A program made the position numbers and the translations under genes. The notes below the pieces were generated by a model, which did no database searches, was not told the DNA's origin, and worked only from the letters and a program-made list of their open reading frames with translations. 64,000 bases of DNA from an uncultured Bacteroidota bacterium (GTDB lineage Bacteria; Bacteroidota; Ignavibacteria; UBA10030; UBA6906), in NCBI GenBank assembly GCA_963700635.1, contig CAVOYH010000004.1:1-64000 (forward strand). Reading direction: 5' to 3'. Position 1 is the stretch's first letter. Every line of letters begins with the position of its first letter. Below, in pieces: positions 15,227-58,686 of this stretch.

Positions 15227-15234
15227 GAGAACGT

Positions 15235-17312: not shown

Positions 17313-18244
17313 TTCTCGGGTTTGACATAGGCGGTACGAAGAGTGCTGCCATCCTTGGAACCGACCGGGGGGAAATCCGGCTGAGGAAGGAGATCGCCAC
17401 CCGGGCACCACGCGGGTTTCAGCCGGTGTTTGACGACCTGTGCGTGCTGGGTCGTGACGTTGCAGCCGGGACCGGTGGGGAACCCATCGAGGCGATCAGT
17501 GTCTCCATCGGCGGACCGCTGGATGTCTTACGAGGCATTATTCTCTCACCACCAAATCTCCCCGGTTGGGATCAGATTCCGCTGAAGGTCCTTCTGGAAA
17601 AACACTTTAACCTTCCGGTATTTATCGAGCACGACGGCAATGCGGGCGCGCTTGCCGAGTGGATGTTCGGTGCCGGACAGGGAATGGTGAACCTGGTGTT
17701 TCTGACCATGGGCACGGGTTTTGGCGCGGGACTGATTCTTGACGGCCGGTTGTACCGGGGCACGAGTGATGTTGCGGGCGAGGCGGGACACATCCGGATT
17801 GCCGAAGATGGACCCGTCTGTTACGGCAAGGCCGGGTCGCTGGAAGGGTACGCAAGCGGGACGGGTATTGCCCGCCTCGCACACCTGCTCCATCCTGCGC
17901 TCTGGAAGGAAGACGTGACGCTCCGTCAGATCGCGGACGAGGCGAGAGCCGGTTCTGCCGGAGCACTGCAGGTATTTGAAATTGCCGCCCTGCATTTCGG
18001 GCGCGGACTCGCGATGATCATGGACATGCTTAATCCCCAGATGATCATTCTTGGCGGGGTGGGGATGCGCCTGAACGAACTTCTTGTCGCTCCTGCGCTC
18101 GAAGTGGCACAGCGTGAGGCGTTGCCCCGGGCCTGGGAGTCATGTCAGGTTGTTCCCGCCAGACTCGGAGAGGCGATTGGAGATTATGCGTCGCTCTGTG
18201 CAGCGCTTGATCAGGGGAAATTACTTGCGAAGAGAGAACCATGA
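17309..18244 (+). CDS. ROK family sugar kinase
   Basis: GFDIGGTK, PPNLPGW, EHDGNAGALAE, GTGFGAG, GEAGHI; no HTH domain. Confidence 0.9.
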   Translation: MILGFDIGGTKSAAILGTDRGEIRLRKEIATRAPRGFQPVFDDLCVLGRDVAAGTGGEPIEAISVSIGGPLDVLRGIILSPPNLPGWDQIPLKVLLEKHFNLPVFIEHDGNAGALAEWMFGAGQGMVNLVFLTMGTGFGAGLILDGRLYRGTSDVAGEAGHIRIAEDGPVCYGKAGSLEGYASGTGIARLAHLLHPALWKEDVTLRQIADEARAGSAGALQVFEIAALHFGRGLAMIMDMLNPQMIILGGVGMRLNELLVAPALEVAQREALPRAWESCQVVPARLGEAIGDYASLCAALDQGKLLAKREP

Positions 18245-19344
18245 CGACACGTTATCCGCACATTCCATTTGAAGGTGCCCGCCCCGATGTCGAGCAGTTC
18301 GTCGAGTCGTTACTGGGACGCCGCTCCCTGCACCGGGCCCCGTTGATCGAATACATTGTCGATGATGTTGTAATGCAGCCCATCCTGGAGCAGATGATGG
18401 GACGCAGGTGGATACCCTGGGGGCCAACACGCGAAGACATAACCGGATATTTAGACAACATGATCGTGTTCTGGAAGGGGATGGGGTATGACTTTGTGCG
18501 CTTTGAACAGAGCCTTGCGTTGCCCGAAAACCTGACGATTATTCCCGATGCAGCGCCCGGCTCGTCGAAACAGCGCGCCTGGCCTGATGAGCACCACGGG
18601 GCCATCACCTCGTGGGAGGAGTTTGAGCGATATCCCTGGCCGCGCGTTGAAGAATTTGATTTCTTCCCGTTCGAGTATCTGAATCAGCACCTTCCTGATG
18701 GCATGGGACTGATCAGCAGTCATGGCGGGGGGATGTTCGAGCACCTTTCCTGGATAATGTCCTTCGAGGGTCTCTGTACCGCGCTGTACGAGGCTCCTGA
18801 TCTCGTAAAGGCCATAGCCGACCGGCTTGGAAATCTTATGGTCCCGTTCTACCGGCATCTCCTTGATCTCGACCGGCTTGCCGTTGTCTTCCCCGGTGAT
18901 GATATGGGGTATCGTTCCTCGACCATGATATCCCCTCGCGACCTGCGCACGCACATTCTGCCGTGGCACAAACAATTTGCGGCAATGGCTCATGCCCGAT
19001 CGATTCCGTATTTCCTGCATTCGTGCGGGAACATCTTTTCCCTCATGGATGACCTGATCGATGATGTGGGCATTGACGGCAAGCACTCTTTCGAGGACGC
19101 CATCCTCCCTGTCGAGGAGTTCCAGCGGCGGTACGGTCAGCGTGTTGCTGTTCTCGGGGGGGTGGATATTAACATCCTCTCCGGCAAACCACCGGAAGAA
19201 GTCCGCGCCCGGGTACATGAACTGATCCTTACATGCGGACCTGCCGGTCGATATGCGATCGGGTCCGGCAATTCTGTTCCGAGTTATGTGCCGGTCGAAA
19301 ATTATCTCACAATGATAGACGAAGCTCATGCAATTGAATTCTGA
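18241..19344 (+). CDS. Uroporphyrinogen decarboxylase / MtaA-CmuA family protein
   Basis: GDDMG, ISP, LHSCGN, GGVD, GSGNS pattern of the UroD/MetE-like TIM barrel. Confidence 0.82.
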   Translation: MTTRYPHIPFEGARPDVEQFVESLLGRRSLHRAPLIEYIVDDVVMQPILEQMMGRRWIPWGPTREDITGYLDNMIVFWKGMGYDFVRFEQSLALPENLTIIPDAAPGSSKQRAWPDEHHGAITSWEEFERYPWPRVEEFDFFPFEYLNQHLPDGMGLISSHGGGMFEHLSWIMSFEGLCTALYEAPDLVKAIADRLGNLMVPFYRHLLDLDRLAVVFPGDDMGYRSSTMISPRDLRTHILPWHKQFAAMAHARSIPYFLHSCGNIFSLMDDLIDDVGIDGKHSFEDAILPVEEFQRRYGQRVAVLGGVDINILSGKPPEEVRARVHELILTCGPAGRYAIGSGNSVPSYVPVENYLTMIDEAHAIEF

Positions 19345-21601
19345 GGGAGTATTCCCCCTGCGCGGCGCATCATGGTTCTGGATGCTCACCATTCTCCTCG
19401 TTGTGTTCGCGCCAGGCGCCCGGGCACAGAAAGGAGCATATCTGGCAGATATCCGGACCGCTGCCGAAAAATCCTGGCGGGAGATGCCGGCCTTGCTGGA
19501 ACAGTGGAAACAGGATCCCCGCCATAGTGTGCTGTGGGGATACAACTCGCCGGCCCACCCGTTGTATCTCGCCGGGACATTCGGATATCTTTACAGATTG
19601 ACGGGGGAGAACATATACGCCGAGCGTGCAGTTGCGCTCCTGAGTGCGTACGGCGATCTGCGGGCAACCCTGCCTCCCGGGTTCGCTTCCGGACGTGTGG
19701 AATACAGTGCGGGAGTACCCGCGGTGTCGAATTTCTTCTTCCTCCCTCCGTATGCGCGCGCGGTTCGTGATATCCAGGGGAGCCCTGCGCTGAACCCTGC
19801 CGCCCGTGCGAAGATTTCCCGTGATCTTGGTGAGAGTATTGAATTTGTGTTTCGTTTCCCGGAATGGGGCGCACATAATCGTGCCATGTTGCGGGCGGAG
19901 GCCTTGCGAATTGCCTGTGACGCGCTTCCCGACCATCCCGGCGTCCCTCGGTGGCGCCAGATGGCGGCTGCTATTGCCGGCGATAATCTCCGGCACTGGG
20001 AAATTGAAGATGCCACCGTGTACCACCCTGTCTGGCTACATGCCGTCCTCTCCTATGCCGAGGCGGCCGGCCATCCAGAAGTTCACCGATCGGCGATGAT
20101 GCGTTATTATATGGAGTACTTCACCCGGTTGATCGCCCCGTCCGGGTTAATCCCCGATTTCGGGGACGCATACTGGGAGTCTTCGCTGGAGGGACTTCGA
20201 ATGGTGGCGGTTTTCGAACGAGGGGCTGCGGTTTTTCAGGACCCTGCCATAAAATGGGCGGCGCACGAGTTGTACAGCAGCGGCAAAAAACGTCTCGATA
20301 CGCTCGGTATCGGAGCGGCGTATTATTTGTGTGACGCGCACCGCTGGGCGGATGAAGGTGTTTCCCGCATCCGTCCAGAAGGGGGAAGCGAGGAAGTGCT
20401 GGACGATTGTATCGGGAAGAAGGTGGTCTTTCGAAACGGTTGGGACTCAGCCAGCACATACATGCTGCTAAACTACCGGGATGAGGGCGACGGAGGATGG
20501 CTCGGCAGGACATACCTCCGCAACACGATCTCGGTGGAAGAAGAAAAAATGCATCATGGACACGCGGATGAGAACAGTATCGTGTTGCTCATGGATCAGG
20601 GATCGGTTCTTCTGCATGATGCGGGATACCGGAACGACCTGCCGAGTGGACCGTTTGGCGCATGGAGGCAGGACTACTTTCACAACCGGCTTGTCGCACG
20701 ATCGGGCAAGCGCGATGCGCGGCAGAGCGTTCTCTCCTTTGTGCAGAATTCAGGCGCCTACCGTTCTGTGCGCACGCAGAAGATTGATTTTGTCAGGCTG
20801 CGCGACGTGGATATGAGCCGCACCCGGGTCGTTGATGAAGCCCTCGGGTATTCCTGGGATCGCGTTGTGGCGTATGACGGGGTTTCCGGAATATTTGTTG
20901 TTGTGGATGGAGTCCGTGTTCTGCGTCCCGATTACTATACGTTTACAAATTTCTGGCATGCAGGTGTCGTACTCGATACCGGCCGCCATTCCTATGTGAT
21001 CGGCGTAGATTCAATCGGTTCCACCGCCCTGCCGCGCACCAGAGCGCTCCGGCTCCTCTTCCTGGAACACAATGCCAAGACCGAGGGGCGTGAGCCGATC
21101 AGCAGACACTTCCGCACTGAGCAGGCAATCACTCAGAGTGTCTCGAGTCAGTATAAAACAGGAGATATGGAGGTCTTTGTCACCATCCTGGTCCCCGGAG
21201 ATCGGAGGATGCGGGCGGATGATCCCCCGCGTGTGGAACTGATCCCGACATCTCCGGCGATGCAGGCGGTCGCGGTGACGTACGACTATCGAGGTATCCG
21301 CCGGACGATCGGCGTTAAGCTCGACCTCGAATCCGAGATTGCGCGGGACAACATCCGGCCCCGGTATCTCTACGACCTCGGCCGTGTCGCCTATGGTGCA
21401 TGTGAGACCGACGCCCATTTCTTCGTGCTCCGTGAAGAGGGCGGGAAGAGTTCCGTGTCAGCGGTCAACGTGCTGAAGTTCATCCATCGGGGCACCACCA
21501 TGATGTCCGCGCTTCCCAATACGCACGGCCTGCAGCTGGATGGAGGAGGGGCACGCGTGGGATATTCGAAGTGGAGGGTATTCGAAAGCCAGGACGAGTG
21601 A
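19328..21601 (+). CDS. Secreted heparinase II/III-like (toroid plus beta-sandwich) protein
   Basis: Signal peptide ending ARA-Q; HNRAM, EDATVYH, IPDFGD, VFRNGW, HHGHADENSI, DAGY, YFHN. Confidence 0.65.
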   Translation: MQLNSEGVFPLRGASWFWMLTILLVVFAPGARAQKGAYLADIRTAAEKSWREMPALLEQWKQDPRHSVLWGYNSPAHPLYLAGTFGYLYRLTGENIYAERAVALLSAYGDLRATLPPGFASGRVEYSAGVPAVSNFFFLPPYARAVRDIQGSPALNPAARAKISRDLGESIEFVFRFPEWGAHNRAMLRAEALRIACDALPDHPGVPRWRQMAAAIAGDNLRHWEIEDATVYHPVWLHAVLSYAEAAGHPEVHRSAMMRYYMEYFTRLIAPSGLIPDFGDAYWESSLEGLRMVAVFERGAAVFQDPAIKWAAHELYSSGKKRLDTLGIGAAYYLCDAHRWADEGVSRIRPEGGSEEVLDDCIGKKVVFRNGWDSASTYMLLNYRDEGDGGWLGRTYLRNTISVEEEKMHHGHADENSIVLLMDQGSVLLHDAGYRNDLPSGPFGAWRQDYFHNRLVARSGKRDARQSVLSFVQNSGAYRSVRTQKIDFVRLRDVDMSRTRVVDEALGYSWDRVVAYDGVSGIFVVVDGVRVLRPDYYTFTNFWHAGVVLDTGRHSYVIGVDSIGSTALPRTRALRLLFLEHNAKTEGREPISRHFRTEQAITQSVSSQYKTGDMEVFVTILVPGDRRMRADDPPRVELIPTSPAMQAVAVTYDYRGIRRTIGVKLDLESEIARDNIRPRYLYDLGRVAYGACETDAHFFVLREEGGKSSVSAVNVLKFIHRGTTMMSALPNTHGLQLDGGGARVGYSKWRVFESQDE

Positions 21602-21655
21602 TGAGGGACTGGCCAACGGGAACGGGAGATCGAGCATGACAGAAAGAAGAGGTGC

Positions 21656-22486
21656 ATGATGGTGACAGGGAAAGAAGTACGAATGCAGCGCATCTGGAAA
21701 CACCGTCGCGCAGTGATCGTACCGTATGACCATGGCGGGTTTGGCGGACCGCAGGCAGGAATTGAAGATCTTCTGCGGCTGACGGAACGGCTCGCGCGCA
21801 CGAAAGCAGACGGCATTCTCGTTTCCGCCGGTATCCTCCCTCACATCGCCCCTGCAGTCGGACAACTGGGCATTGTGGCGCGGCTGGACGGCGGGTTTAC
21901 ACGGTTTGCAACCGATGTGAGCGACTATGAACAACTCTGGTCGGTCAGCGATGCCGTTACCCTCGGTGCTGATGCCGCAATTGTCTTCACCTTCGTGGGT
22001 ACTTCCGTGGAACGACATTCACTGCACCGTTTGGGTGCAGCGGCTGTGGACGCCCATGCCCGGGGTGTGCCCCTGATCTCTGAGATTATTCCTCCCAGCC
22101 TGCTCAACAACCACTTTGGCATGACCATCTTTCCGAAGCCTTCAAAGAACGCCAACATCAGCGAGGAAATCAGCCGCACGATTCGCATCGGGGCGGAAGC
22201 CGGGGCGGATATAATCAAGACCCGGTACAACGGCAATCCCGATCAGTTCCGACGGGCGGTGAAGGCGTGTCCTGCAAAAGTGATTGTCGCGGGAGGCCCC
22301 CTTGCATCCGGGTCGGATGATGCGGTTCTTGAACTTGCAGCAGAGTGTGTTCAGGCCGAAGCCGATGGCATCATCTTCGGGCGCACCGTGTGGCAACATC
22401 CGAAAATGGAGAAGCTGATTGCGGCCCTCTGTGCCATTGTGCATGAAGAGGACAGCGTCACACACGCGCGGAAACTGCTGCGGTGA
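21656..22486 (+). CDS. Class I aldolase, DhnA/FbaB/LsrF family
   Basis: PYDHG, LGADA, Schiff-base lysine in GADIIKTRY, VAGG, GIIFGRTVWQ. Confidence 0.87.
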   Translation: MMVTGKEVRMQRIWKHRRAVIVPYDHGGFGGPQAGIEDLLRLTERLARTKADGILVSAGILPHIAPAVGQLGIVARLDGGFTRFATDVSDYEQLWSVSDAVTLGADAAIVFTFVGTSVERHSLHRLGAAAVDAHARGVPLISEIIPPSLLNNHFGMTIFPKPSKNANISEEISRTIRIGAEAGADIIKTRYNGNPDQFRRAVKACPAKVIVAGGPLASGSDDAVLELAAECVQAEADGIIFGRTVWQHPKMEKLIAALCAIVHEEDSVTHARKLLR

Positions 22487-23412
22487 TAACGACAATCACA
22501 TTGAACCCCATGCTCGACAAGACCGTCACGGTGCATCGTATTATTCCGGGCGGTATCACGCGGGCAGTACAGACACGAATGGTGGTGGGCGGCAAAGGGG
22601 TAAACGTGTCCCGCCAGCTCCGGACCCTCGGGGTAGAGACAACCGCCAGCGGTTTTCTCGGCGGCGAGATCGGGACCATCCTGGAGCGGCTCCTGGATGC
22701 AGAACACATGCGCCACTCTTTTGTGAGGGTTGCGGGCATGACGCGCGAGGGGGTGACGTATCTGGATGATGCCGGGGTTACGACCGGGGTCTTTGAACCG
22801 CCCCATGAAGTCACCGGGGCCGACGTCGGACGGCTCCTGGCGCACGGCGAACAGCTGGGAAAGGAAAGCACGTGGGTTGTGTGCTGCGGCAGTTCTCCGG
22901 AGCCGGTTGCCGATGGAGTCTACGCAGCTCTTATTCGCGTCATGCGTGCCCATGGCGTGTACACTGCTCTGGATTCGTACGGGAACGCACTCCGGGCCGG
23001 GCTTGAAGCGGTTCCGGATCTGCTCAAGGTCAACCGCCACGAGTGGGAACAGACGTTCGATGAATCTCTCGGTTCAGAAGAAACCGTCATTGGCGTGCTC
23101 AGGACCCTGCTGTATCGCGGGGTGCGCGTTGCGGTGTTGACCGACGGGGAACGGACATGTTACGCCGCCACAGGGTCATCCATCTGGAAGGTCAATCCTC
23201 CGACGGTGCAGGCCCTGAATGGGACAGGTTCGGGGGACAGCATGCTCGCGGCCATGCTCTTCGGTATCCTCCATGGGTGGGAATTCGAGACGCTTCTCGC
23301 GTTTGGGATTGCCGCAGGCGCTGCAAATGCGCGTGTCTGGGATGTGGCTGTTTCCCCGCGTGCCGATATCGATGCACTGTTGCCGCACATTCATTGTGAA
23401 AAGATCTGTTAA
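22483..23412 (+). CDS. 1-Phosphofructokinase/tagatose-6-phosphate kinase family (FruK/LacC-like PfkB)
   Basis: TITLNPMLD, GGKGVNVSR, GFLGG, LKVNRHE, GTGSGDSMLA. Confidence 0.88.
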   Translation: MITTITLNPMLDKTVTVHRIIPGGITRAVQTRMVVGGKGVNVSRQLRTLGVETTASGFLGGEIGTILERLLDAEHMRHSFVRVAGMTREGVTYLDDAGVTTGVFEPPHEVTGADVGRLLAHGEQLGKESTWVVCCGSSPEPVADGVYAALIRVMRAHGVYTALDSYGNALRAGLEAVPDLLKVNRHEWEQTFDESLGSEETVIGVLRTLLYRGVRVAVLTDGERTCYAATGSSIWKVNPPTVQALNGTGSGDSMLAAMLFGILHGWEFETLLAFGIAAGAANARVWDVAVSPRADIDALLPHIHCEKIC

Positions 23413-23447
23413 CGAACACTCTTCATTCATCAAGAAGGAAACCATCA

Positions 23448-25784
23448 ATGCCTGCGTTACACCAATACCTTACACAACTCACCACTCTGGAGCATACGCC
23501 CGGCGGCGCGCCGGTGGAACTCACGGTCGCACAGGAATTTACACAACACTGTAATAAGACCGTGGCAGTCCGGGCAACACCCGGAAACGCTGCCGGCGCA
23601 GGCAGCCTGCGGATAGGCGTGATTGCCGATCCTGCATCCGCCCGGGCCCTCCATCCGGCACTCGAGAAAAAAGAGCAGTGGATGATGCTGCGCTGCAAAG
23701 AAGGCGCCGGAGTGGAACTGTTTGCATCCCACACGCACCTGCTCTATCAGCTCTGGACTCTCGCGATCGAGGAGTGGCGTTCGACAGACATCGGCGCATT
23801 CCGCGCGGGGAAAATTGTGACCCCGACCTTTCCGGGAATGCGCCCAGTGTACGATATCTTTCTGACACAGGTCGCGCGGACATCGCGGCTGTTCAACAGG
23901 GAAGAGCACTTTCGGACCATGGCCCGGCTCGGCTCTTCGTATGCAGAGGTAAATGGTCTTGCGTTCCCCGTCCCCTTCGAAACCGGTCCGAAGGGAGAAT
24001 TGCTGCACCGGTTCTATACGTATTGCCCGGCGTTGGACCAGTTTGTCACCAGCCGGCTGAACAAGGGGTATTACGATCAGGACTATCTGCAGGCGAACCT
24101 GAACAATCTCAAGACCAACGCCGAGTATGCCCTGAAATACGGCCTTACACCGGGTCTGGTCAGTTTTGAACCGAGGTCGGTGCCGGACGAGTTGCTGCAG
24201 CGGTATCCTGTTCTCCGGGGAGCCAGGGTGGATCACCCGATGCGGAGTTTCCGGCCCCGTTATAACCTTTCCGTTGCGCATCCGGTTGTGCTCGATCATT
24301 ATGCCGAGATGATGGAAAATCTGATGCATGAAGTACCGGCTCTCGAATTCTTTTCTATCTGGTCCAACGACAGCGGCGCGGGATTCGAGTACACTAATTC
24401 ACTGTATGTCGGCCGCAACGGCGGAGGATATCTTGTCCGCGAATGGCTCGCAGCCAAAGATATTGCAGCCGCCGCTGCCATCAATCTGGTACGATTTATG
24501 AAAACGCTCCGTGACGCCGGCCGGAAGATCAACCCGCGATTCCGCACGCTTATCCGTCTGGAACCATTCTGGGAAGAACACGACCATATCTGGGGCCAGC
24601 TCGAAAACGGACTGGATGTCGAGGTGTCCTCTTTCCTGACCAAAGGCTGGGATCTTGCATACAAACATCCCAAATACGAGGAGGTGCCGCAGATACACGG
24701 GACGGCGTTGTATTGTACGTTCGTTGAACAGGAACGGGCGATCATACAGGACCTCGAACGGAAGGGCGCAGGAGCGGACGTCTATTTTGTCCCCGGCATC
24801 CTGGGTAACCACGAGCCCCTGATCGGGATTCCTTTCCCGGGTCTGGTCCATAAGAAACTTTATGAAATGGCCGACCGATCGGTCACCACTGCGGCATACC
24901 AGGGCGGTGTGACCCCGACCTCGTTCGCCCCGTATAACATCAACCAGGAAGTTATCCGTGCCTATCAGTTTGACCGCGACCTGGATCTTCAGGCATTGCT
25001 CCGGCGCAAAGCGGTGGAATGGATCGGTGAGGAACTTGCGAACGATCTGGTCAGCCTCTGGGCGCTGTCTGAGGAAGCATTCATGTCGTTCCCGCTTCCC
25101 ATCTGGATCTATTCCGGATGGAGCGTATGGTACCGGCTGTCGGTCCGCCCGATTGTTCCGAACATCGAGGCAATCCCCGAGGCCGAACGCGCATACTACG
25201 AAGACTTCCTGCTGGCTACCACCCACAATCGCACACGTGTCGACTTCCGGTACGATGTCGGGTTTGATCTTATCGAACCCCCGCGTGCGTGGAAGGCGAT
25301 CAAGCATATGGACGAAGATCTCTTCCCCGTCATGCTAAAAGCTGTTGCCCTTGCAGAATCCATGCTGAAGCGTGCGAAAACGGATCAGGCAAAGGCGTGT
25401 GCGCAGGATCAATATGACCGTATGCGGGCTCTCCTGTACTGGTACCGGACAGAATATGCAGTCACCGCCTGGGTGGCGGGGGTGCATACCTACATCGGGA
25501 GCACCGATGCCAAGGAACGGAAGATGTGCAGGGAACTGCTGCGGAAAGTGGTCCTGGATGATATTCAGAACACAAAAGACCTGCTCCATCTGTGGGAAAC
25601 TTCCCGGACGAACTGGCTCATCATCTCCGATGTCGGTGAGACCACGTTTATCTACTATAAGAACTTCGGAGAGTTGCTGAAGAAGAAGATCGCTGTCATG
25701 GCGGGACATGAGAATGATGAGCCGCACGTCGACCCCGACTTCCAATGGCGAGTTCCGGGTTTTCCGGACAAGGACAACGTATAA
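23448..25784 (+). CDS. Large hypothetical cytoplasmic protein (possible TIM-barrel hydrolase)
   Basis: 778-aa ORF with SD AAGGAA and host-like codon usage; no family motif recognised. Confidence 0.7.
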   Translation: MPALHQYLTQLTTLEHTPGGAPVELTVAQEFTQHCNKTVAVRATPGNAAGAGSLRIGVIADPASARALHPALEKKEQWMMLRCKEGAGVELFASHTHLLYQLWTLAIEEWRSTDIGAFRAGKIVTPTFPGMRPVYDIFLTQVARTSRLFNREEHFRTMARLGSSYAEVNGLAFPVPFETGPKGELLHRFYTYCPALDQFVTSRLNKGYYDQDYLQANLNNLKTNAEYALKYGLTPGLVSFEPRSVPDELLQRYPVLRGARVDHPMRSFRPRYNLSVAHPVVLDHYAEMMENLMHEVPALEFFSIWSNDSGAGFEYTNSLYVGRNGGGYLVREWLAAKDIAAAAAINLVRFMKTLRDAGRKINPRFRTLIRLEPFWEEHDHIWGQLENGLDVEVSSFLTKGWDLAYKHPKYEEVPQIHGTALYCTFVEQERAIIQDLERKGAGADVYFVPGILGNHEPLIGIPFPGLVHKKLYEMADRSVTTAAYQGGVTPTSFAPYNINQEVIRAYQFDRDLDLQALLRRKAVEWIGEELANDLVSLWALSEEAFMSFPLPIWIYSGWSVWYRLSVRPIVPNIEAIPEAERAYYEDFLLATTHNRTRVDFRYDVGFDLIEPPRAWKAIKHMDEDLFPVMLKAVALAESMLKRAKTDQAKACAQDQYDRMRALLYWYRTEYAVTAWVAGVHTYIGSTDAKERKMCRELLRKVVLDDIQNTKDLLHLWETSRTNWLIISDVGETTFIYYKNFGELLKKKIAVMAGHENDEPHVDPDFQWRVPGFPDKDNV

Positions 25785-26935: not shown

Positions 26936-26945
26936 CAGGAGCACC

Positions 26946-27914: not shown

Positions 27915-27917
27915 ACG

Positions 27918-34341: not shown

Positions 34342-34344
34342 AAA

Positions 34345-41146: not shown

Positions 41147-41167
41147 ATCACACATACGCGAGATATC

Positions 41168-42952: not shown

Positions 42953-42972
42953 CAAAGGAAGGAAACGAGGCA

Positions 42973-44683: not shown

Positions 44684-44737
44684 GAACCATGAAGAACGGC
44701 AGGTGGAAAATCACTGCCTGAAAGGATTATCTGTACA

Positions 44738-46126
44738 ATGATACGGATTGAAGAGTCGATTACAGCGGAACACCTGCTGCCGCGCGTGACGCGAGTGTTT
44801 GACCTGTCCGCGAAAAAACTTACCCTGCTCCAGAACGCCTGGAATCCCCATCATGGCACACCCGTGTTCACGGAGAACGGGGTGTACACCTCGCGCGGAT
44901 GGACCGAATGGACACAGGGGTTCCAGTTCGGGTCAGCCATTCTGCAGTTCGATGCTACAGGAGAGCACGCGGCGCTGGAAACCGGAAGAAGGGCGACTGT
45001 GGATTGTATGGCTACCCACGTCAGCCATGTCGGAGTGCATGACCACGGTTTTAACAACGTGAGCACGTACGGCAATCTGCTCAGGCTGATGCACGAAGGA
45101 CGCATTCCGGACCAGGAGTGGGAACGCGCATACTACGAACTTGCCCTGAAAGTGAGCGGAGCCGTCCAGGCTGCGAGGTGGACTGATCTGGGCAACGGCG
45201 ACGGATACATCTATTCGTTCAACGGCCCGCATTCCCTGTTTGCCGATACTGTGCGTTCTCTCCGCGTGCTTGGTGTAGCACACCAACTCGGCCACGTGCT
45301 GATGGGCGAAAAAGACAGGAAAATCTCGCTCCTTGAACGTCTGATCGTCCATGCCTTTACAACGGCAAAATACAACGTCTACTTCGGCGAGGGCCGGGAC
45401 GCATACGATATCCGGGGTCGTGTTGCGCATGAATCGATCTTCAACCTGAACGATGGGTCGTATCGCTGTCCAAGTTCACAACAGGGGTACTCGCCGTTTT
45501 CGACCTGGACACGGGGGCTGGCATGGATTCTCTGCGGGTTTGCGGAACAGCTCGAGTACCTTTGTACCCTGTCAGACTCCGCTTTTCCGAAAGGCAGGAA
45601 GAAGGCCGAGGTGATGTCAACCTTCCTCAACACTGCCAGTGCAGTGGCCGATTTCTATATTGACCAGTCGCCGACCGACGGAATTCCGTACTGGGACACC
45701 GGGGCCCCCGGACTTGCCAGGATGGGGGACTACCTGCAGAAACCCGCCGATCCGCTGAATGACCACGAACCGGTGGACAGTTCCGCGGCGTTGATCGCTG
45801 CACAGGGCCTGCTCCGCCTGGGACTCTACTTGAAGGGGATCGGGAAAAAGGATAACGGGAGCCGGTACTTCCAGGCGGGACTCACAGTAGTAAAGCATGT
45901 TTTTGATGAGCCGTATCTCTCCCTCGGTGAAACCCATCAGGGGCTTATACTCCATTCGGTCTACCACCGCCCCAATGGGTGGGACTATGTTCCCGCGGGG
46001 GGGAAGATTCCTTGCGGCGAGTCGACAATGTGGGGTGACTACCACGCGCGGGAACTTGCCCTTATGGTGTTGCGGATGGCAAAAGGAGAACCGGTTCCGG
46101 CGTTCTTTCTCACCCCACGGCGGTGA
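44738..46126 (+). CDS. GH88-like unsaturated glucuronyl hydrolase
   Basis: WTQGF, HDHGF, TWTRGLAW, PYWD, DSSA, WGDY. Confidence 0.8.
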   Translation: MIRIEESITAEHLLPRVTRVFDLSAKKLTLLQNAWNPHHGTPVFTENGVYTSRGWTEWTQGFQFGSAILQFDATGEHAALETGRRATVDCMATHVSHVGVHDHGFNNVSTYGNLLRLMHEGRIPDQEWERAYYELALKVSGAVQAARWTDLGNGDGYIYSFNGPHSLFADTVRSLRVLGVAHQLGHVLMGEKDRKISLLERLIVHAFTTAKYNVYFGEGRDAYDIRGRVAHESIFNLNDGSYRCPSSQQGYSPFSTWTRGLAWILCGFAEQLEYLCTLSDSAFPKGRKKAEVMSTFLNTASAVADFYIDQSPTDGIPYWDTGAPGLARMGDYLQKPADPLNDHEPVDSSAALIAAQGLLRLGLYLKGIGKKDNGSRYFQAGLTVVKHVFDEPYLSLGETHQGLILHSVYHRPNGWDYVPAGGKIPCGESTMWGDYHARELALMVLRMAKGEPVPAFFLTPRR

Positions 46127-47090
46127 AAAAGGCTTCCAGGTTTGCCAGCGGCACCTGGGCCGGGATGTCACAACCTGATGAAATGACGAAGTTTTTCCTG
46201 GATGACGTCTCTGCGAGCAGGGCCTTCGTCCGGGTACGTAGTTCATCGGCGGAGGCGCCGACAAAGATCTCTGATGGATCGAGATTCCCACAGAGAATGA
46301 TATCATCAGGCACCTGTTGCAGCGCGTTCACGAGATCCATGGGTTTCCCGAAATGGAGAATGCGCGCACCCGAATCAAGTGTTGCCTGGAGATGTCCGAT
46401 GCGTGCACCACAATTGTGCAAGATAATCTGAAATCCACCGTCCTCGACGGCCTCGATGATCCTTCGTACATAGGGGGATGAAAACTCCCTGACGGACGCA
46501 GGGGACATAAGGCCGGCAGTAGGCTCTGCGATAACCACACCGTGCGCACCCGCTTTTTTGAACTCTGCGGCATACCGCATCAGGTATGCCGTCGTCTTTT
46601 CGAGGAGTGTGTGTATCATTTCCGGTTCTCCTGCTGTTTCCACGAGGGACTCGCTGACGCCAAACAGCCTGCCGGCCAGTGAGAAGGGGCCGATCATCCC
46701 TCCCAGCACAATGGCATCGTCAACGGATGCAGCCAGTCTCTCAACGGTACCCAGGTACACGCGCGCACGGTTTGTCCCGATTGCGGGAACTGACAGGGCT
46801 CTGATCATTTCCGGATTGCTCACCAGCCGCCCTGTTACGGTCGGGACTTCCCAATCCGACATCAGGACCTCTGCGCCGAATTCTTCCGCCTCAACGCTCA
46901 AATCCATTGCCGACATCACAAAGGGCGTCTTGAACCTTCTGTGGAGTTCATGCTGGGCGGCGACCTGGCGTTCAACGTCGGTAACCATGGCCCGGACCGT
47001 TGTACCGGTCAACGGTGCGCCCGGGAATGTCAGCACAGGCATAGCCAGCCGCCCGGGAGATGAGAGAATCCGTTCAGAGAGAGAAACCAT
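46110..47090 (-). CDS. MtaA/CmuA-type methylcobamide methyltransferase (UroD family)
   Basis: DLSVEAEEFGA, GPFSLAG, AEPTA, Zn ligands LHNCG and SSGCD, GNLDP. Confidence 0.85.
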   Translation of the reverse strand: MVSLSERILSSPGRLAMPVLTFPGAPLTGTTVRAMVTDVERQVAAQHELHRRFKTPFVMSAMDLSVEAEEFGAEVLMSDWEVPTVTGRLVSNPEMIRALSVPAIGTNRARVYLGTVERLAASVDDAIVLGGMIGPFSLAGRLFGVSESLVETAGEPEMIHTLLEKTTAYLMRYAAEFKKAGAHGVVIAEPTAGLMSPASVREFSSPYVRRIIEAVEDGGFQIILHNCGARIGHLQATLDSGARILHFGKPMDLVNALQQVPDDIILCGNLDPSEIFVGASADELRTRTKALLAETSSRKNFVISSGCDIPAQVPLANLEAFFTAVG

Positions 47091-47124
47091 CAACGATGCA
47101 TCCTTCGTGGTGATGACGAGATTG

Positions 47125-48648
47125 TTATTCGTGCGGGGTAAGTGGACCCGGGAAGATCATTTCTTCAACGTAGGTGTCCTGGAAGCCTTCGAGTCCACTG
47201 AGCGAGACGTGTTGTATACGCGCGGCGAGCCTGTCGAAGGTTTCCGGGGATGTAAAAAGAGCCATCTTGGCACCCAGCAGAGCCGTGTTGCCCGCAGGGT
47301 GGATCTGTGCGGAGTCGAATGGTAGAAGGCCGATACGCTGGGCGCTTGTTGTGTTGATATAGTTGCCGAAGGCCCCGGCCAGGAGTACCCGCCCCACCCC
47401 GTCATGGGTCGTTCCGAATTCCCGGAGCAAAAGCCGTATCCCGGCTCCTATGGCCCCCTTTGCAAGCTGTAACTCCCGGATATCGGTCTGGGAAATCTTC
47501 ACCGGCGGGCAGAGCATGATCGATTTTCCGCCATCAGTGAACCTCCCTCCGGTTTTGATGCGTCCGAGTGAAAGGGAGGCGGCGACTGCATCAACAAGGC
47601 CGCTTCCGCAGATTCCGCGAGGCGGAACATTGCCCAGGACCCGGCAGACAAGTTCCTCTCCTTCCACGTGTACGGCCGAAACCGCGCCGGTTGATGCCCG
47701 CATCCCCATGTAAATCCTCGCGCCTTCGAAGGCCGGTCCGGCCGCCGTGGATGCGCAGACCATCCGTTCGCTATTGCCCACAACGACCTCACCATTGGTG
47801 CCCAGGTCAACGAGGACCAGGACATCTTTGGAGTGATGCAGGCCGGTAGCGAATACGCCCGCAAGAATGTCGCTGCCCACGAATCCCCCGATGCCGGGCA
47901 GAAATCGGATTGTCGGAGTGCCCGGAGTGCTCCATCCCAGATCACGGGATGTAAATATTTTCTGTTCCAGGGTCTCCGGCTCAAAGGGGTAATGGGACAA
48001 CGGCGTGGTGTTGATATCACAGAAGAAGTGATGCATGACGGTATTTCCGACAAGGACGATGTCCTTGAGGGCGTGAACCTCTTCCGGTGTTGCGTCAAGG
48101 AGTTCACCGATCATCTTCCCGATCTGTTTCCGCAGTACGGTGACGAGCGTTGAGTGTCCGGTCGGATCGGCCGCATGGGAGACGCGGCTCATGATGTCAG
48201 CGCCAAACCGTGCCTGCGGATTGAGTCCGCTGCGCACAGCGAGCACTTCTCCGCGGCTGAGATCGAGCAGCTGGGCCACGATTGTTGTCGAGCCGACATC
48301 CACCGCGATGCCAAAACCCTCACGCGGCGTGAAAGAGAAGTCCGATGTATCGGCAAGAATTTGAGCTTCCCACTGAGCAAGCTCGAGGGTGAGGTCGCCG
48401 TCGGCACGACACTGGCACGAGAGACGCCACCCTGCGGCACATTCGTCGGGCGAGAGCATATGCTCCTGCACGGGTGACAGCGGGAGGGACCCTTCGAGCA
48501 CCCGTACGCGGCATCCTTTACATTTTCCGTTCCCACCGCAGGGAAACTCGACGCCGTAGGCGAAGAGGAGATCCTGCAGGGGGGTTCCCCGCGGGGTGTC
48601 AATATCCACGCCCATCGGGCGAAGGCGAATGCGGACCGTGCCACTCAT
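47125..48648 (-). CDS. ATP-dependent reductive activator of corrinoid proteins (RACE/RACo; 2Fe-2S plus ASKHA/DUF4445)
   Basis: CGGNGKCKGC...RLSCQ; DVGSTT, NPQ-x-FGADIMSR, VGNTVMHH, DLGTNGE, AGPAFEG, GICGSG, LAGAFG. Confidence 0.92.
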   Translation of the reverse strand: MSGTVRIRLRPMGVDIDTPRGTPLQDLLFAYGVEFPCGGNGKCKGCRVRVLEGSLPLSPVQEHMLSPDECAAGWRLSCQCRADGDLTLELAQWEAQILADTSDFSFTPREGFGIAVDVGSTTIVAQLLDLSRGEVLAVRSGLNPQARFGADIMSRVSHAADPTGHSTLVTVLRKQIGKMIGELLDATPEEVHALKDIVLVGNTVMHHFFCDINTTPLSHYPFEPETLEQKIFTSRDLGWSTPGTPTIRFLPGIGGFVGSDILAGVFATGLHHSKDVLVLVDLGTNGEVVVGNSERMVCASTAAGPAFEGARIYMGMRASTGAVSAVHVEGEELVCRVLGNVPPRGICGSGLVDAVAASLSLGRIKTGGRFTDGGKSIMLCPPVKISQTDIRELQLAKGAIGAGIRLLLREFGTTHDGVGRVLLAGAFGNYINTTSAQRIGLLPFDSAQIHPAGNTALLGAKMALFTSPETFDRLAARIQHVSLSGLEGFQDTYVEEMIFPGPLTPHE

Positions 48649-48650
48649 TG

Positions 48651-49397
48651 TTATCCGGGCTCCGCAGTAATGATACGATCGTCATGAGTCGGGACAACCC
48701 TGTGTCCGGGTGGCACGACAAGAAAGTCGCTTTCGTCCCACTCACCGCGAACGAGCCGTTCCAGCAGCGTCAGGTTTCCCTGGACGCGTTCGTAGGACCA
48801 GCCGTTTTCGCGAGCGCGGTCCTGCGCAGTGTTTTCGAACTGCGCATTAGGTTCTATGCCCATGGAGAGGAAGGTGATCTGGCGGTAATGTCTGGTCATG
48901 TCACAGAGTTGATCAAACAGAAACCGGGCGTTCTCTTCGCCGTATTTCTCCACGAGTTGCTCGTACGTGAGGTCCATGCCGTTTTTGTTCTGGATCGACA
49001 GCTGGCGGAGTTCCCCGGTGGGATCTCCCCCCCGTTCGATCCAGCCGGATGTCAGGAAATACGTGCCGGGATTATTCTGGAAGTAGTCCAGATACTTGTC
49101 CCTGCTCCCGAAGAACAAGGTCATACAATCATGGCCCCGGGGAATGACAACGGGCAGGGTTCGCGCACACAATCCTGTAATCCCATTGTTGCAGAGTGCG
49201 TATCCCAGGAGGATGGCATCATAACCGGGCGTGTCTGCAGCATCCACCGCGGCCTGCAGTCGTTCCACCATTCCTGCTGAACCGATATCGTGCAGCCCTT
49301 TGGGGAGGAAACAGTGGTCGACCTGATGCGGGGAATGCGCGATCAGGTGACACAACTCGCGGTAGAGGACTTCGCAGGATACCAGGTTAAATTTCAT
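48651..49397 (-). CDS. DUF1638 domain protein (associated with corrinoid methyltransferase clusters)
   Basis: SCEVL, GLH, LLGYALCNNG, PRGHDC, TYFLTSGW; ATG 49397. Confidence 0.85.
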   Translation of the reverse strand: MKFNLVSCEVLYRELCHLIAHSPHQVDHCFLPKGLHDIGSAGMVERLQAAVDAADTPGYDAILLGYALCNNGITGLCARTLPVVIPRGHDCMTLFFGSRDKYLDYFQNNPGTYFLTSGWIERGGDPTGELRQLSIQNKNGMDLTYEQLVEKYGEENARFLFDQLCDMTRHYRQITFLSMGIEPNAQFENTAQDRARENGWSYERVQGNLTLLERLVRGEWDESDFLVVPPGHRVVPTHDDRIITAEPG

Positions 49398-49429
49398 GTG
49401 GTCAGACAGAATGGGTAAGAAGGGAAATG

Positions 49430-50299
49430 TCAGCGTATGGTATGGGACAAGGCCTCGACGAACATGGGCGAAGTCCCGCAACACCCGCCGATAAAGGCGA
49501 CGCCGGCATCGCGGAGCGCGAGGGCCTGTGTGGCAAACTCTTCAGGTGTCGTCCGGTAGGTTACCGTACCACCGACCATTTCAGGGAGTCCGGCATTCGG
49601 CTTGATCCACAGAGGGAGGTCCGTTGCAGCTCTGAGTCTTCTGGCGATGGGTATATATCCCTCCATACCCAATCCGCAATTCGCACCGACAACATCGACG
49701 CCGGCGGCGGCGAGCTCTTGTGCCACCTGTTCCGGCGTTGAACCCATCATGGTCCGGTCCTTATCTTTTCCCGAGTCAAAAACCATTGAGGCCACAACGG
49801 GGAGTCCGGTGGCGCGGGCGGCCTTGATGGCAAGCGTAGCTTCCTGAAGATCGGACATGGTTTCAATGACCAGCGCATCGGCGCCGGCCGCAGCGAGCGC
49901 GGTGGCCTGTTCTTCAAATGCTTGCAGAACATCGTTTTCCGTCACCTCTTCGGTCATCAACAATTTCCCCGTCGGTCCGATTGACGCAAAGACCGCTGCG
50001 CGAGAGCCGGCCGCGGCGCGGGAAATGCGTACGCCGATGGAATTGATTTCCGCAGTCTTGTCGGCCAGGCCAAAACCATCCAGCGCAATGCGGTTACTGC
50101 GGAACGTGTTCGTGAGGATGACGTTACTCCCGGCCTCGATATAAAATTGTCCGACACGCTTCACGTGCTCCGGATGCGTCAGATTCCAGCCGTCCGGGCA
50201 TTCGCCCGGAGGCAGACCGAGGGCCTGGAGTTGGGTTCCCCAGGCCCCGTCAGTGATAACTGGAGTTGAACGCAGTAAGCGTGTGAGGGTCGGATGCAT
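49430..50299 (-). CDS. Stand-alone homocysteine S-methyltransferase domain (MetH N-terminal/BHMT-like)
   Basis: DGAWGTQL, AGS-x-TNTF, SIGPTG, IETMSD, Zn ligands GANCG and IGGCCGT, KPNAGLP; SD GGGGAG before ATG 50299. Confidence 0.92.
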   Translation of the reverse strand: MHPTLTRLLRSTPVITDGAWGTQLQALGLPPGECPDGWNLTHPEHVKRVGQFYIEAGSNVILTNTFRSNRIALDGFGLADKTAEINSIGVRISRAAAGSRAAVFASIGPTGKLLMTEEVTENDVLQAFEEQATALAAAGADALVIETMSDLQEATLAIKAARATGLPVVASMVFDSGKDKDRTMMGSTPEQVAQELAAAGVDVVGANCGLGMEGYIPIARRLRAATDLPLWIKPNAGLPEMVGGTVTYRTTPEEFATQALALRDAGVAFIGGCCGTSPMFVEALSHTIR

Positions 50300-50326
50300 A
50301 ACGTGCGCGTCTCCCCGGGACATGAT

Positions 50327-50962
50327 TCAGGCAGCGACGAGTTTTCGGGCGAGTGCGACGGCCCCGTTGGCGTTGGTGCTGTATCCGTCTGCGCCGATCT
50401 CCTGCGCATACTTTTCCGTGACGGGTGCCCCACCGATCATGATTTTCACTTGGTTGCGCACGCCGGCGGCTTTGATCGCTTCCACGGTGGTTTTCATCGA
50501 GTTCATGGTAGTCGTCAGTAGGGCCGACATCGCCACGAGGGTGGCTTTTTTCTCGTTCAGGGCGGCGATGAACTTTTCGGGCGGAACATCAACACCAAGG
50601 TCGATGACCTCGAATCCTGCGCCCTCCAGCATGGCGGCAACAAGATTTTTCCCGATGTCGTGAAGGTCGCCCTTCACGGTGCCGATGACCACCCGGCCGG
50701 CCGGTTCCGCGCCTTTCGCGACGAGGAGGGGACGGATAAACTCGAGTGACGCCTTCATGGCGCGGGCAGAGATGAGGAGTTCCGGAACAAAGTATTCATT
50801 TGCTTCGTACCGGCGTCCGACTTCGTCCATGGCGGGGATCATGTGTTCCTGTACCATGGCCTGGGGGTCCGCACCTGCTGCGAGTGCTTGTTGCGTAATT
50901 TCCCTGGCTGCCTTAAAATTCCCCGTGAGGATTGCATCGTAGAGCTTTTTCAGATCTTCCAT
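50327..50962 (-). CDS. Corrinoid (B12-binding) methyl-carrier protein (MtaC/MttC-like)
   Basis: Cap domain MDEVG-x-EYFVPEL; DxHxxG motif GDLHDIGKNLV, DLG-DV, SALLTTT, MIGGAP, IGADGY. Confidence 0.95.
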   Translation of the reverse strand: MEDLKKLYDAILTGNFKAAREITQQALAAGADPQAMVQEHMIPAMDEVGRRYEANEYFVPELLISARAMKASLEFIRPLLVAKGAEPAGRVVIGTVKGDLHDIGKNLVAAMLEGAGFEVIDLGVDVPPEKFIAALNEKKATLVAMSALLTTTMNSMKTTVEAIKAAGVRNQVKIMIGGAPVTEKYAQEIGADGYSTNANGAVALARKLVAA

Positions 50963-50988
50963 GGCAGTAACTCTCCCGCGAATTGTGA

Positions 50989-52038
50989 TTACAATTGTCC
51001 GTGCTCGTGCACAGTCTCGTACATGGTCAGAATATTGACAGTTGGCGTGACGGGTTGAAGGTTGTGACACGGAGCGCAGATCCAGCGCGCCCCCGAAAAG
51101 AGACGGATATTGTCCAGAACTTCCGAACGAACCTCCTCGACACTGCCAAAGGGAAGCGTGTGCTGGTTATCCACTGCACCATGAAATATCACACGCTTGC
51201 CGAAATCACGCACCAGTCCTTCTCTCTCCATACCCGGACACCGCCACTGGATCGGATTAAGGATTTCTATGCCGGTCACATCCAGCAGGTCCGGAATAAT
51301 ACTCCGTGCGGCGCCGTCGGTGTGATAGAATACATGGATGCCGAAGCTGCGCGCAAGATCGGCCATTTTCTTCTGACGCGGGAGAATGAACCGGCGGATT
51401 TCCGGGACTCCGAAGAGGAGCGCCGTCTGTCCGCCCAGGTCTTCTGCGACATACGTGATGTCGATCCGCCCCTTCCCCAGCTCGAAGGTGCGCTGATTCA
51501 CAGTGTAGTAGTATTGAAAGATATGTTCAAGGGCTGTGTCGACGAACTCCTGATCGACCAGCAGGTCCATCATGGCCAGTTCCATTCCGCGCAACGCGCA
51601 GTACAGCAGGAATGGTTCATATTCTCCGGACCGCACAATACGGTGAGAGGGCGCCGCAGAAATCTCTCTGTGATACCGTTCAAAATCGTGATCCGCAGGC
51701 CGGGGCCAGGGATACGCGTTCAGTTCGTCAACCGTGGTCAGGTCGGCCAGGGGGTGGTTGGCAAATTCGTCGTATGATCCGGTTCCATAATCGATCGCCG
51801 TGCGCCGCAAACCCCAGATATCTGCCTGCTCATCTCCCGGAGGATGCTTCAGGGTCCGTTCGGGGTTAATATGGACAACGCCGTCGATATGAAGACGTGT
51901 ATACAGTGCTTCTTTATCTGCACAGCCAAGCTCTTTGAGGAGTCGCGCCGTGACTTCGTCTGTCGCCCAGTAATCTGTGGGAATTCTGTCGGGCTTTTCA
52001 CCGGCAAAGAGGGCAAGCCACCGTTCTCGAGGTGTCAT
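50989..52038 (-). CDS. UroD/MtaA-family protein (candidate substrate:corrinoid methyltransferase, MT1)
   Basis: MTPRER-x-PDRIP, LRGME, AEDLG-Q, YHTDG, LNPIQ, GAVDNQ-x-LP, APCHN. Confidence 0.85.
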   Translation of the reverse strand: MTPRERWLALFAGEKPDRIPTDYWATDEVTARLLKELGCADKEALYTRLHIDGVVHINPERTLKHPPGDEQADIWGLRRTAIDYGTGSYDEFANHPLADLTTVDELNAYPWPRPADHDFERYHREISAAPSHRIVRSGEYEPFLLYCALRGMELAMMDLLVDQEFVDTALEHIFQYYYTVNQRTFELGKGRIDITYVAEDLGGQTALLFGVPEIRRFILPRQKKMADLARSFGIHVFYHTDGAARSIIPDLLDVTGIEILNPIQWRCPGMEREGLVRDFGKRVIFHGAVDNQHTLPFGSVEEVRSEVLDNIRLFSGARWICAPCHNLQPVTPTVNILTMYETVHEHGQL

Positions 52039-52161
52039 ATGACATAAGATGCCCCATAATTACGACAGAAGCAACCGTTTTCGGGGAATGTTTCATATGC
52101 AAACTGCTGTTTCATTAGCTGGGCCATGATGCACCTCCGCAAAGCTTCACGACCCACCCGA

Positions 52162-52190: not shown

Positions 52191-52216
52191 AGAAGGAACT
52201 CATTTTTTGGAGGGAT

Positions 52217-58684: not shown

Positions 58685-58686
58685 TT

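Follow-up and report, generated by a model that had tools for sequence, protein, structure and literature searches.

A cluster of six minus-strand genes at positions 46110-52038 of the 64,000-nucleotide stretch analysed here (the window, G000:C4:1-64000) encodes, according to the open reading frame list and to Pfam and NCBIfam matches, a divergent UroD-family protein (UroD2), a corrinoid protein, a homocysteine domain, a DUF1638 protein, a RACo activase and an MtaA-like protein. This module is very likely a corrinoid methyl-transfer system whose final acceptor is homocysteine. Besides, it may act as a shared hub, its corrinoid protein taking methyl groups from scattered glycan-linked methyltransferases that strip sugar methyl ethers and passing them to homocysteine, the favoured single reading, to which somewhat less than an even chance is given. 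What was observed comprises the genes with their motifs and folds, a conserved gene order within one phylum, the distribution of the paralogs and a docking test passed in silico; from these we infer that UroD2 and UroD3, a UroD-family protein encoded in the adjoining sugar operon, depend on corrinoid, as well as the direction of transfer, the identity of the donor and the use of a single corrinoid protein by more than one methyltransferase. The assembly comprises 4.2 Mb in six contigs and is 97% complete with 6.7% contamination. Its closest named contigs are from Ignavibacteriota/Bacteroidota metagenome-assembled genomes (MAGs) of soil, fen, lake sediment and groundwater, in agreement with the placement within the Fibrobacteres-Chlorobi-Bacteroidetes (FCB) group made earlier from the sequence alone (hereafter the sequence-only reading).

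In the proposed mechanism, the corrinoid protein would carry the methyl group and the Zn domain would move it from methyl-Co(III) to homocysteine, yielding methionine, RACo and the DUF1638 protein re-reducing oxidised Co(II) to Co(I). UroD2 (His/Asp/Cys) and the MtaA-like protein (His/Cys/Cys) would be methyltransferases added to a split methionine synthase core, the MtaA-like enzyme probably passing surplus methyl to a second thiol. Substrate-specific methyltransferases of glycan loci, namely UroD3, other UroD paralogs and an orphan MtaB, would load the shared corrinoid protein. The likeliest donors would be methoxy groups of acidic plant or algal glycan sugars, such as 4-O-methyl-glucuronate or the 2-O-methyl sugars of pectic side chains.

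Proteins of the six-gene module

The genes of the module, together with that of UroD3, are the following.

50989..52038, minus strand: UroD2, divergent protein of UroD/MtaA fold and candidate corrinoid methyltransferase (a weak Pfam URO-D match of 53 bits, confined to the C-terminal half)
50327..50962, minus strand: corrinoid protein, cap and Rossmann B12-binding domain (Pfam B12-binding_2 PF02607 and B12-binding PF02310)
49430..50323, minus strand: stand-alone homocysteine-binding S-methyltransferase domain, MetH module 1 or MtgE-like (Pfam S-methyl_trans PF02574, 222 bits; NCBIfam)
48651..49484, minus strand: DUF1638 protein, partner of RamA-like activases in split MetH (Pfam DUF1638, 132 bits)
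47125..48648, minus strand: ATP-dependent reductive activase of corrinoid proteins of RACo/RACE type, with 2Fe-2S, middle and ASKHA domains (Pfam Fer2, Raco_middle, RACo_C_ter)
46110..47093, minus strand: MtaA-like UroD-family methyltransferase with a thiol-type His-Cys-Cys pattern (Pfam URO-D, 187 bits)
18241..19344, plus strand: UroD3, UroD-family protein inside the sugar operon (Pfam URO-D, 71 bits)

The open reading frame of the corrinoid protein extends to 51070, and its orthologs begin at the Met at 50962 (211 aa; ortholog alignment), where the gene probably starts. The protein carries the DxHxxG motif as D-L-H-D-I-G, and its NCBIfam matches are of the MtgC/pyl_corrinoid type, under the cut-offs. 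In the homocysteine domain, the Zn cysteines that the sequence-only reading had called intact, C216, C281 and C282, are kept in 22/22 orthologs, in an arrangement which we take to be the Zn pattern of MetH and BHMT. The start of the DUF1638 gene is probably at about 49397. The MtaA-like gene and the last plus-strand gene (44738-46126) meet tail to tail and share 17 nt at their 3' ends, and the start of the UroD3 gene overlaps the end of the ROK kinase gene (17309-18244) by 4 nt. The make-up of the cluster, its contact with the last gene of the sugar operon and the position of a third UroD gene right after the ROK kinase are thus as that reading had described them, Pfam and NCBIfam confirming the six families.

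The four-gene core is already known as split MetH, and what is added here is the presence of UroD2 and MtaA-like genes and the setting in a glycan locus. Indeed, the features of that core (a stand-alone corrinoid protein, a PF02574 domain with its three Zn cysteines, and DUF1638 with a RamA-like activase of ferredoxin and DUF4445/RACo domains) are all present in the window. The three-part MetH of Phaeobacter inhibens depends on two further proteins, one RamA-like and one of the DUF1638 family (PMC5764234), and the corrinoid protein of the split MetH of Ruegeria pomeroyi also receives methyl groups from MtgB during glycine betaine catabolism (PMC12478193). The Roseobacter split MetH/MtgBCDE system described there resembles the module in its separate corrinoid protein, its separate homocysteine Zn domain and its DUF1638 protein with a RamA-like ferredoxin-domain activase; moreover, one corrinoid protein serves both methionine synthesis and a substrate-specific methyltransferase (MT1), as is proposed for the module. 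In contrast to the Roseobacter system, the donor enzymes would belong here to the UroD family (and MtaB) rather than to MttB/MtgB, the cluster is without a pterin subunit, the four genes stand in one operon with two UroD genes, and the host is a soil or sediment bacterium of Ignavibacteria type that has a complete MetH besides. The statement of the sequence-only reading that no characterised pathway of this kind was known in FCB bacteria has therefore to be qualified, since the core is the published Phaeobacter/Ruegeria split MetH, which takes methyl from an MT1 as well.

As to the UroD-family proteins, H239-T-D241 of UroD2 stands where MtaA-type proteins carry H-x-C (hhalign to the MtaA-like family, probability 39%), and H239, D241, C267, C324 and H325 are invariant in 44 sequences, down to 38% identity. 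The AlphaFold2 (AF2) model of UroD2 has a pLDDT of 95.2; its top Foldseek match is MtaA 4ay7 (E 2.7e-12, TM 0.68), followed by uroporphyrinogen decarboxylases and then MetE. Searches of PDB sequences with UroD2 gave no match for the single sequence and chance matches only for an 8-row profile (E ~0.7). In the MtaA-like protein, H-x-C and the distal Cys align with the Zn ligands of MtaA 4ay7, and in UroD3, which has the motif H260-S-C262, the alignment places Asn at the position of the third ligand (distal Cys). Hence, among the three UroD proteins of the window, the full H-x-C...C set is found in the MtaA-like protein only, UroD2 being H-x-D. None of the three was retained as a HemE or MtaA equivalog, all scores being under the NCBIfam cut-offs: the best matches of the MtaA-like protein are of MtaA, MtbA and CmuA type (131.7 vs 244, 120 vs 235 and 91 vs 400), the MtaA/MtbA scores of UroD2 and UroD3 are at most 41 bits, and the best score against HemE TIGR01464 is 67.5 vs 302.95. 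The HemE of this genome is likely C5:101309-102319 (Pfam URO-D, 470 bits). According to a preprint (PMC10418091), S-methyltransferases of UroD type use His-Cys-Cys, and enzymes acting on O-methyl groups swap a Cys for a carboxylate or a non-ligand. By this rule, which is a soft one, UroD2 with its H-x-D and UroD3 with its Asn would therefore not be thiol-type enzymes.

The module shares with the O-demethylases of acetogens and Desulfitobacterium a UroD-superfamily candidate for MT1, a small corrinoid protein and a RACE-type activase, together with a Zn site departing from His-Cys-Cys, as in the O-methyl enzymes treated in that preprint. It differs from the acetogen enzymes by an acceptor that is a homocysteine domain instead of a pterin-binding former of methyltetrahydrofolate, by a context of glycan instead of aromatic catabolism, and by the presence of DUF1638. 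Pterin_bind PF00809 has no match in the window, so that no pterin-binding acceptor-side methyltransferase (MT2) of acetogen type was found in the cluster, and all five matches in the genome lie elsewhere. The architecture given by the sequence-only reading (MT1, corrinoid protein and RACE, without a pterin-binding MT2 and with two thiol-type Zn enzymes) is thus borne out.

The pairing of UroD3 with the corrinoid protein of the module was modelled from input alignments of 5 and 9 rows, respectively, alongside three controls. The median run gave an ipSAE of 0.71, against 0.00 for the best of the 3 controls; the mark used for this score is attained by 116/157 solved complexes and by 2/215 mismatched pairs. 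Contact agreement between runs was at least 89% and partner pLDDT at least 88. In the models, the cap helix (55-67) and the His-loop (103, 106) of the corrinoid protein face the barrel of UroD3 at residues 175-184, 226-234 and 267. This prediction supports a binding of UroD3 to the corrinoid protein of the module.

Conservation and genomic distribution of the module

Among 40 relatives, UroD2 orthologs (at least 67% identity) were found in 10 genomes and DUF1638 in 12. The six genes stand in the same order in G002, G003, G005, G008, G019 and G022, and in the three genera of G008, G019 and G022 the module abuts genes for p462, SDR, CN-hydrolase, SSF, glycerate kinase, p778, PfkB, an aldolase (not in G022), p757, UroD3, ROK and M20. 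In G018, the corrinoid, homocysteine, DUF1638 and RACo genes occur alone; because this four-gene core is without UroD genes, UroD2 and the MtaA-like protein are regarded as additions to it. An apparent fusion of the homocysteine and DUF1638 genes in G008 (a 543-aa open reading frame in a genome that is 61% complete) was treated as a probable frameshift, since the homocysteine-domain match ends at profile position 195/283.

At a larger scale, 80 UroD2 loci were compared; at least two core genes adjoin UroD2 in 22 of them and all six genes are present in 16. Eighteen module loci extend at least 2.5 kb beyond the module. Twelve of these have the sugar genes of the window (11 including the GH88-like gene), three have other carbohydrate-active enzymes (CAZymes), two have three extra UroD genes (L057, L087) and one has MtaB (L078). 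The three loci with other CAZymes are L062 (GxGYxYP, glycerate kinase and two UroD genes), L063 (GH92, CBM9 and a heparinase-like gene) and L101 (GH89 and CBM9). Within Ignavibacteriota/Bacteroidota, the module is therefore regularly found among glycan genes (15/18), in more than one kind of locus. In a metagenome locus (L201), the corrinoid, p778, SSF, CN-hydrolase, SDR, p462, UroD3 and homocysteine methyltransferase genes are found together in a different order. The linkage to sugar genes proposed in the sequence-only reading thus holds within Ignavibacteriota/Bacteroidota and fails in other phyla, where UroD2 and UroD3 stand alone.

In Planctomycetes and Armatimonadetes, scattered genes are reportedly common. 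Co-occurrence was for this reason examined instead of adjacency in other phyla. In five genomes of other phyla with a stand-alone UroD2, RACo was found in 5/5 and DUF1638 in 4/5, compared with 1/14 for each in control genomes. This co-occurrence supports the corrinoid dependence of UroD2 and gives no support for a sugar donor.

The hub reading draws support from the gene numbers of the genome, in which two RACo, two DUF1638 and three stand-alone corrinoid proteins face 24 URO-D matches plus UroD3 (missed by that scan and found by others) and MtaB. The RACo copies are both full, and there is one RACo and one DUF1638 gene per module copy, a second copy of the six-gene module lying at C3:1868427-1874316, in a stretch of C3 collinear with the window. 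Of the other UroD paralog loci, 8/15 have glycan or sugar-uptake neighbours (GH97, GxGYxYP, GH130/43-like, cellulase-like, AXE1, MFS_2, SSF, and sugar ABC with GHMP kinase) and two more are borderline; such neighbours were found in 2/15 random control loci (Fisher two-sided p = 0.05), the scan threshold being E 1e-8 for the paralog loci and a stricter 1e-10 for the controls. As separate observations, L131 (C6:59001-69500) and L132 (C3:1755001-1768500) each combine a UroD-family gene with a PrsW-like protease, a GHMP kinase and sugar-type ABC parts, one of them also with a lyxose-isomerase-like gene, and a small methyltransferase dependent on S-adenosylmethionine (SAM; Methyltransf_11/25) adjoins some solitary UroD3, UroD2 or paralog genes (L163, L176, L182, L073 and L138 of the same genome).

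The adjoining uronate operon and the rest of the window

The plus-strand genes that end at the module are listed below.

15235..18244, plus strand: cyclase and 4Fe-4S protein, M20 peptidase/deacylase and ROK kinase (Pfam), upstream of UroD3; synteny in G022, G019, G008 and metagenome loci
19328..21601, plus strand: p757, heparinase II/III-like, putative uronate polysaccharide lyase fold (no Pfam match; Atlas leads only)
21656..23412, plus strand: aldolase of the DeoC/LacD family and PfkB sugar kinase (Pfam)
23448..25784, plus strand: p778, predicted GH138/GH67/GH115-like fold of alpha-uronidase type (no Pfam match; AF2 and Foldseek; Atlas GH115/GH67N leads)
25745..26935, plus strand: glycerate kinase (Pfam Gly_kinase, 446 bits)
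26874..41146, plus strand: genus-specific insertion with a GFO/IDH/MocA oxidoreductase, ABC permeases, a binding protein and five large proteins that match no family firmly (Pfam)
41168..46126, plus strand: Na+/solute symporter (SSF), CN-hydrolase, SDR and p462, a GH88-like unsaturated uronyl hydrolase (Pfam, synteny); conserved operon end abutting the module

Taken together, p778, p757, p462, the SDR, PfkB, the class I aldolase and the glycerate kinase make the operon read as one for the catabolism of uronic-acid glycans. This is illustrated by the PDB match of p462 to the GH88 unsaturated glucuronyl hydrolase 1vd5 (E 1.2e-7). For p757, the Atlas gave heparinase II/III and ulvan lyase clusters with scores of 0.95-0.99, which are leads only, and no useful match came from a PDB sequence search. 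The family of p778 (~778 aa) counts 1224 homologs without any Pfam domain, the named ones among the 120 listed being hypothetical proteins. The AF2 model of p778 (pLDDT 80.2) matches in Foldseek GH138 6hzg (E 2.5e-14, TM 0.55), GH67 1h41, GH115 5by3 and GH20, and this modelled fold makes it probable that the family is one of glycoside hydrolases not yet described, with side chains of uronic acid as the target. Because GH67 and GH115 enzymes release 4-O-methyl-glucuronate (titles of PDB entries 1l8n and 5by3), this sugar would be the most tangible of the donor candidates. A second DUF1638/uronidase-like adjacency occurs in another genus (L234, G021:C1:1337500-1357000), where a solitary DUF1638 gene is flanked by that of an uncharacterised 830-aa protein and that of a protein with DUF4838 and a GH67 N-terminal domain, a strong URO-D gene being nearby. 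The operon had been called giant in the sequence-only reading. The operon itself is there; its conserved part is smaller, because the insertion at 26874-41146 is confined to genus g1 (found in G003, in G005 and also in the C3 copy, but not in G022, G019 and G008).

Upstream of the M20, ROK and UroD3 genes, positions 12204-16158 hold FAA-hydrolase, enolase-superfamily (MR_MLE), DHO_dh-like, and cyclase and 4Fe-4S genes, a set which resembles non-phosphorylative pathways for deoxy-sugars or sugar acids. Downstream of the module (52217-63161) are found a Golvesin_C/PD40 protein, two LytTR response regulators, a Reg_prop/Y_Y_Y histidine kinase and a TonB-dependent receptor, kept adjoining the module in several relatives; these may be its regulators or uptake system. 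Scans of 45800-52400 were uninformative, with 6 promoter-like sites vs 2.8 expected (sigma-70 consensus, Bacteroidota promoters not covered) and 8 terminator-like sites vs 5.5 expected.

The first ~114 kb of C4 (the window and on to C4:114505) are collinear gene by gene with the last ~98 kb of C3 (C3:1826311-1922073), with protein identities of 50-91%. The GC content is 59.4% at this end of C3 vs 56.5% in the rest of C3, and the C3 and C4 copies are about equally far from other species of the genus. This collinearity stems either from a large and ancient event of duplication or transfer or from a chimeric join or bin (contamination 6.7%).

Candidate methyl donors and competing explanations

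Several points weigh against a hub loaded from methylated sugars. The module and the sugar operon are transcribed towards each other and hence separately, and synteny among related genomes is non-independent evidence. A total of 45 UroD2 loci (>55% identity) have no core gene nearby, 20 of them spanning at least 12 kb; such solitary UroD2 genes are hosted by Planctomycetota, Anaerolineales, Lentisphaerae and Armatimonadota. In 16 loci that were examined (15 solitary ones and L078), the neighbours are mostly unrelated housekeeping genes, e.g., DnaA and SMC. UroD3 is likewise mostly solitary in metagenome contigs: among 44 loci that span 6 kb or more, it is adjoined by ROK in 11, by p757 in 9 and by p778 in 8, the others having varied neighbours. 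The UroD2 and UroD3 orthologs standing alone in other phyla have 60-67% identity, and such conservation across phyla suggests one common substrate instead of a special sugar. MetE, a thiol enzyme, likewise has a carboxylate ligand. The case for an oxygen-type Zn site, made from Asp in place of Cys, leans on a profile alignment of 39% probability and on one preprint's rule. The paralog enrichment is borderline, with slightly stricter E-values for the controls, and the docking pass may stem from a resemblance to solved methyltransferase-corrinoid complexes, near cousins of true partners passing the same test too. Homocysteine is a poor bulk sink for catabolic methyl flux. Lastly, the donor substrate is a matter of inference only: no evidence names an O-methyl sugar, and this part of the sequence-only reading, to which the solitary orthologs of other phyla are also opposed, was not supported. 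Its overall interpretation is thus supported in part, by the architecture, by the linkage within the phylum and, from modelling, by the docking of UroD3.

A plain split methionine synthase is an unlikely alternative that nevertheless has a genetic precedent. The core would use methyltetrahydrofolate (CH3-THF) via a pterin subunit located elsewhere, the candidate being C4:926055-926927, and neither the UroD genes nor the sugar operon would have a pathway in common with it. In Phaeobacter, genetics shows that methionine synthesis depends on the same core, with a pterin subunit that is likewise unlinked (PMC5764234; for Ruegeria, PMC12478193). Besides, the core occurs alone in G018 and the genome does contain a stand-alone Pterin_bind gene. 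However, this gene, the only stand-alone one that is not FolP-like, sits with its own corrinoid protein in a cluster (L140, C4:923925-928195) that also includes a UroD-family gene, a MetF C-terminal-like gene and MetF and is without an activase of its own; this cluster gives a folate outlet for methyl groups. Moreover, canonical MetH with homocysteine, pterin, B12 and reactivation domains is present twice (C3:1688848-1692376 and C6:126353-129882), so that ordinary methionine synthesis can do without the module and a dependence of methionine prototrophy on it is not expected. The sequence-only reading had asked for a separate MetH pterin domain elsewhere in the genome, where pterin-binding domains were found in canonical MetH and, as a candidate, in the stand-alone gene, and it had counted a split MetH and nothing else among possible refutations; that objection persists in weakened form, since canonical MetH has its own reactivation domain. 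Each MetH copy consists of two open reading frames, one with the homocysteine and pterin domains and one with the B12 and reactivation domains; those of the C6 copy overlap by 4 nt, and its reactivation-domain match holds one in-frame TGA. UroD2 and the MtaA-like gene are furthermore retained in the operon in 16/22 module loci, and Rfam at the gathering threshold gave 0 matches in the whole window, including no SAM or cobalamin riboswitch, leaving thereby no riboswitch clue for the module.

In a salvage of methanol, a rather improbable explanation, methanol from methyl-esterified or 4-O-methylated uronic acids (through esterases or beta-elimination) would be taken by the orphan MtaB to the corrinoid protein of the module and then to homocysteine or another acceptor, UroD2 being an acceptor-side enzyme like the MtaA of methanogens. 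This MtaB (530 bits; C3:83228-84586, L238:8141-9592) follows heparinase-like, BNR and GH97 genes, precedes a catalase gene and has no adjoining corrinoid protein or MT2, which fits the explanation, as does the uronate-directed neighbour operon. In L078, MtaB lies directly ahead of UroD2, corrinoid, DUF1638 and RACo genes without another MT2, an order that would fit UroD2 on the acceptor side and so adds to the points against the hub. Nevertheless, MtaB is unlinked to the module in this genome and in the other 21 module loci, and the explanation leaves UroD3 without a role in the sugar operon. MtaB was also found in none of five other UroD2-bearing genomes (0/5), for which reason UroD2 is not tied to MtaB and the idea of UroD2 as its cognate partner in general was rejected. 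As to Methanosarcina MtaABC, UroD2 has an MtaA-like fold, the MtaA-like gene shares the Zn ligands of 4ay7 and an MtaB homolog is in the genome, whereas the NCBIfam scores for MtaA, MtbA and MtaC are far under the cut-off, MtaB is unlinked, no sign of coenzyme M use is seen and the acceptor domain is one for homocysteine.

A recycling of methyl-sulfur or methyl-selenium compounds has a similarly slim chance. Here the His-Cys-Cys MtaA-like enzyme would demethylate a methylthio compound (methanethiol, dimethylsulfide, methylthio-sugars or -acids) toward homocysteine, as in type 1 mlp clusters. As far as the available text of Kountz and Balskus (PMC10418091) shows, these clusters combine several UroD/MtaA-like proteins with a corrinoid protein and a bacterial RACE, without a folate methyltransferase, and are tied to S/Se-methyl metabolism. 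The MtaA-like protein retains thiol-type ligands, and two UroD2 loci (L066, L068) adjoin PfkB and IF-2B/MtnA-like genes. Yet the type 1 clusters have, in the same text, two or three His-Cys-Cys Mlps and sulfur/selenium neighbours, whereas the module has one His-Cys-Cys UroD protein and CAZyme neighbours; the homocysteine domain and DUF1638, both present in the module, are not among the core genes named there. No sulfur or selenium genes were found in or beside the module, its neighbours are consistently CAZymes, and the His-Cys-Cys set is incomplete in both UroD2 and UroD3. Betaines, proposed as donors in the sequence-only reading, and methylamines acting via MttB are unlikely, no MttB-family gene having been found in the genome (97% complete).

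Sugar methyl ethers are common in plant and algal walls, as 4-O-methyl-glucuronate in xylans and arabinogalactans and as 2-O-methyl-fucose or -xylose in pectic side chains, and they block normal sugar catabolism; for 6-O-methyl-galactose, a P450 route is known. A search of the literature found no paper on corrinoid-dependent demethylation of methyl-sugars, some 1.7 million PMC articles and subscription journals lying outside that search. Returning to the hub reading, its broadest form, which is tentative and judged somewhat unlikely, would be an oxygen-independent sugar O-demethylase of hub-and-spoke type in Ignavibacteria and possibly in those Planctomycetes, Anaerolineae and Armatimonadetes that have UroD2, UroD3, RACo and DUF1638 in common with them: numerous UroD/MtaB-like enzymes of glycan loci would strip methyl ethers, each from its own sugar, e.g., from 4-O-methyl-glucuronate freed by a new GH138/67/115-like uronidase family, and would all load one corrinoid protein for the formation of methionine and of a methylated second thiol. 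Should the hub model fail, the locus, with its UroD add-ons, would still be the first core of split-MetH type outside Proteobacteria that is described here. If the model is true, it would provide an anaerobic counterpart of the P450 route for 6-O-methyl-galactose, testable genes for sugar demethylation in abundant bacteria of soil, peat and sediment, and a function for DUF1638 and for two large, widespread orphan UroD families. The breakdown of glycans would then be tied to vitamin B12 demand and to methionine supply.

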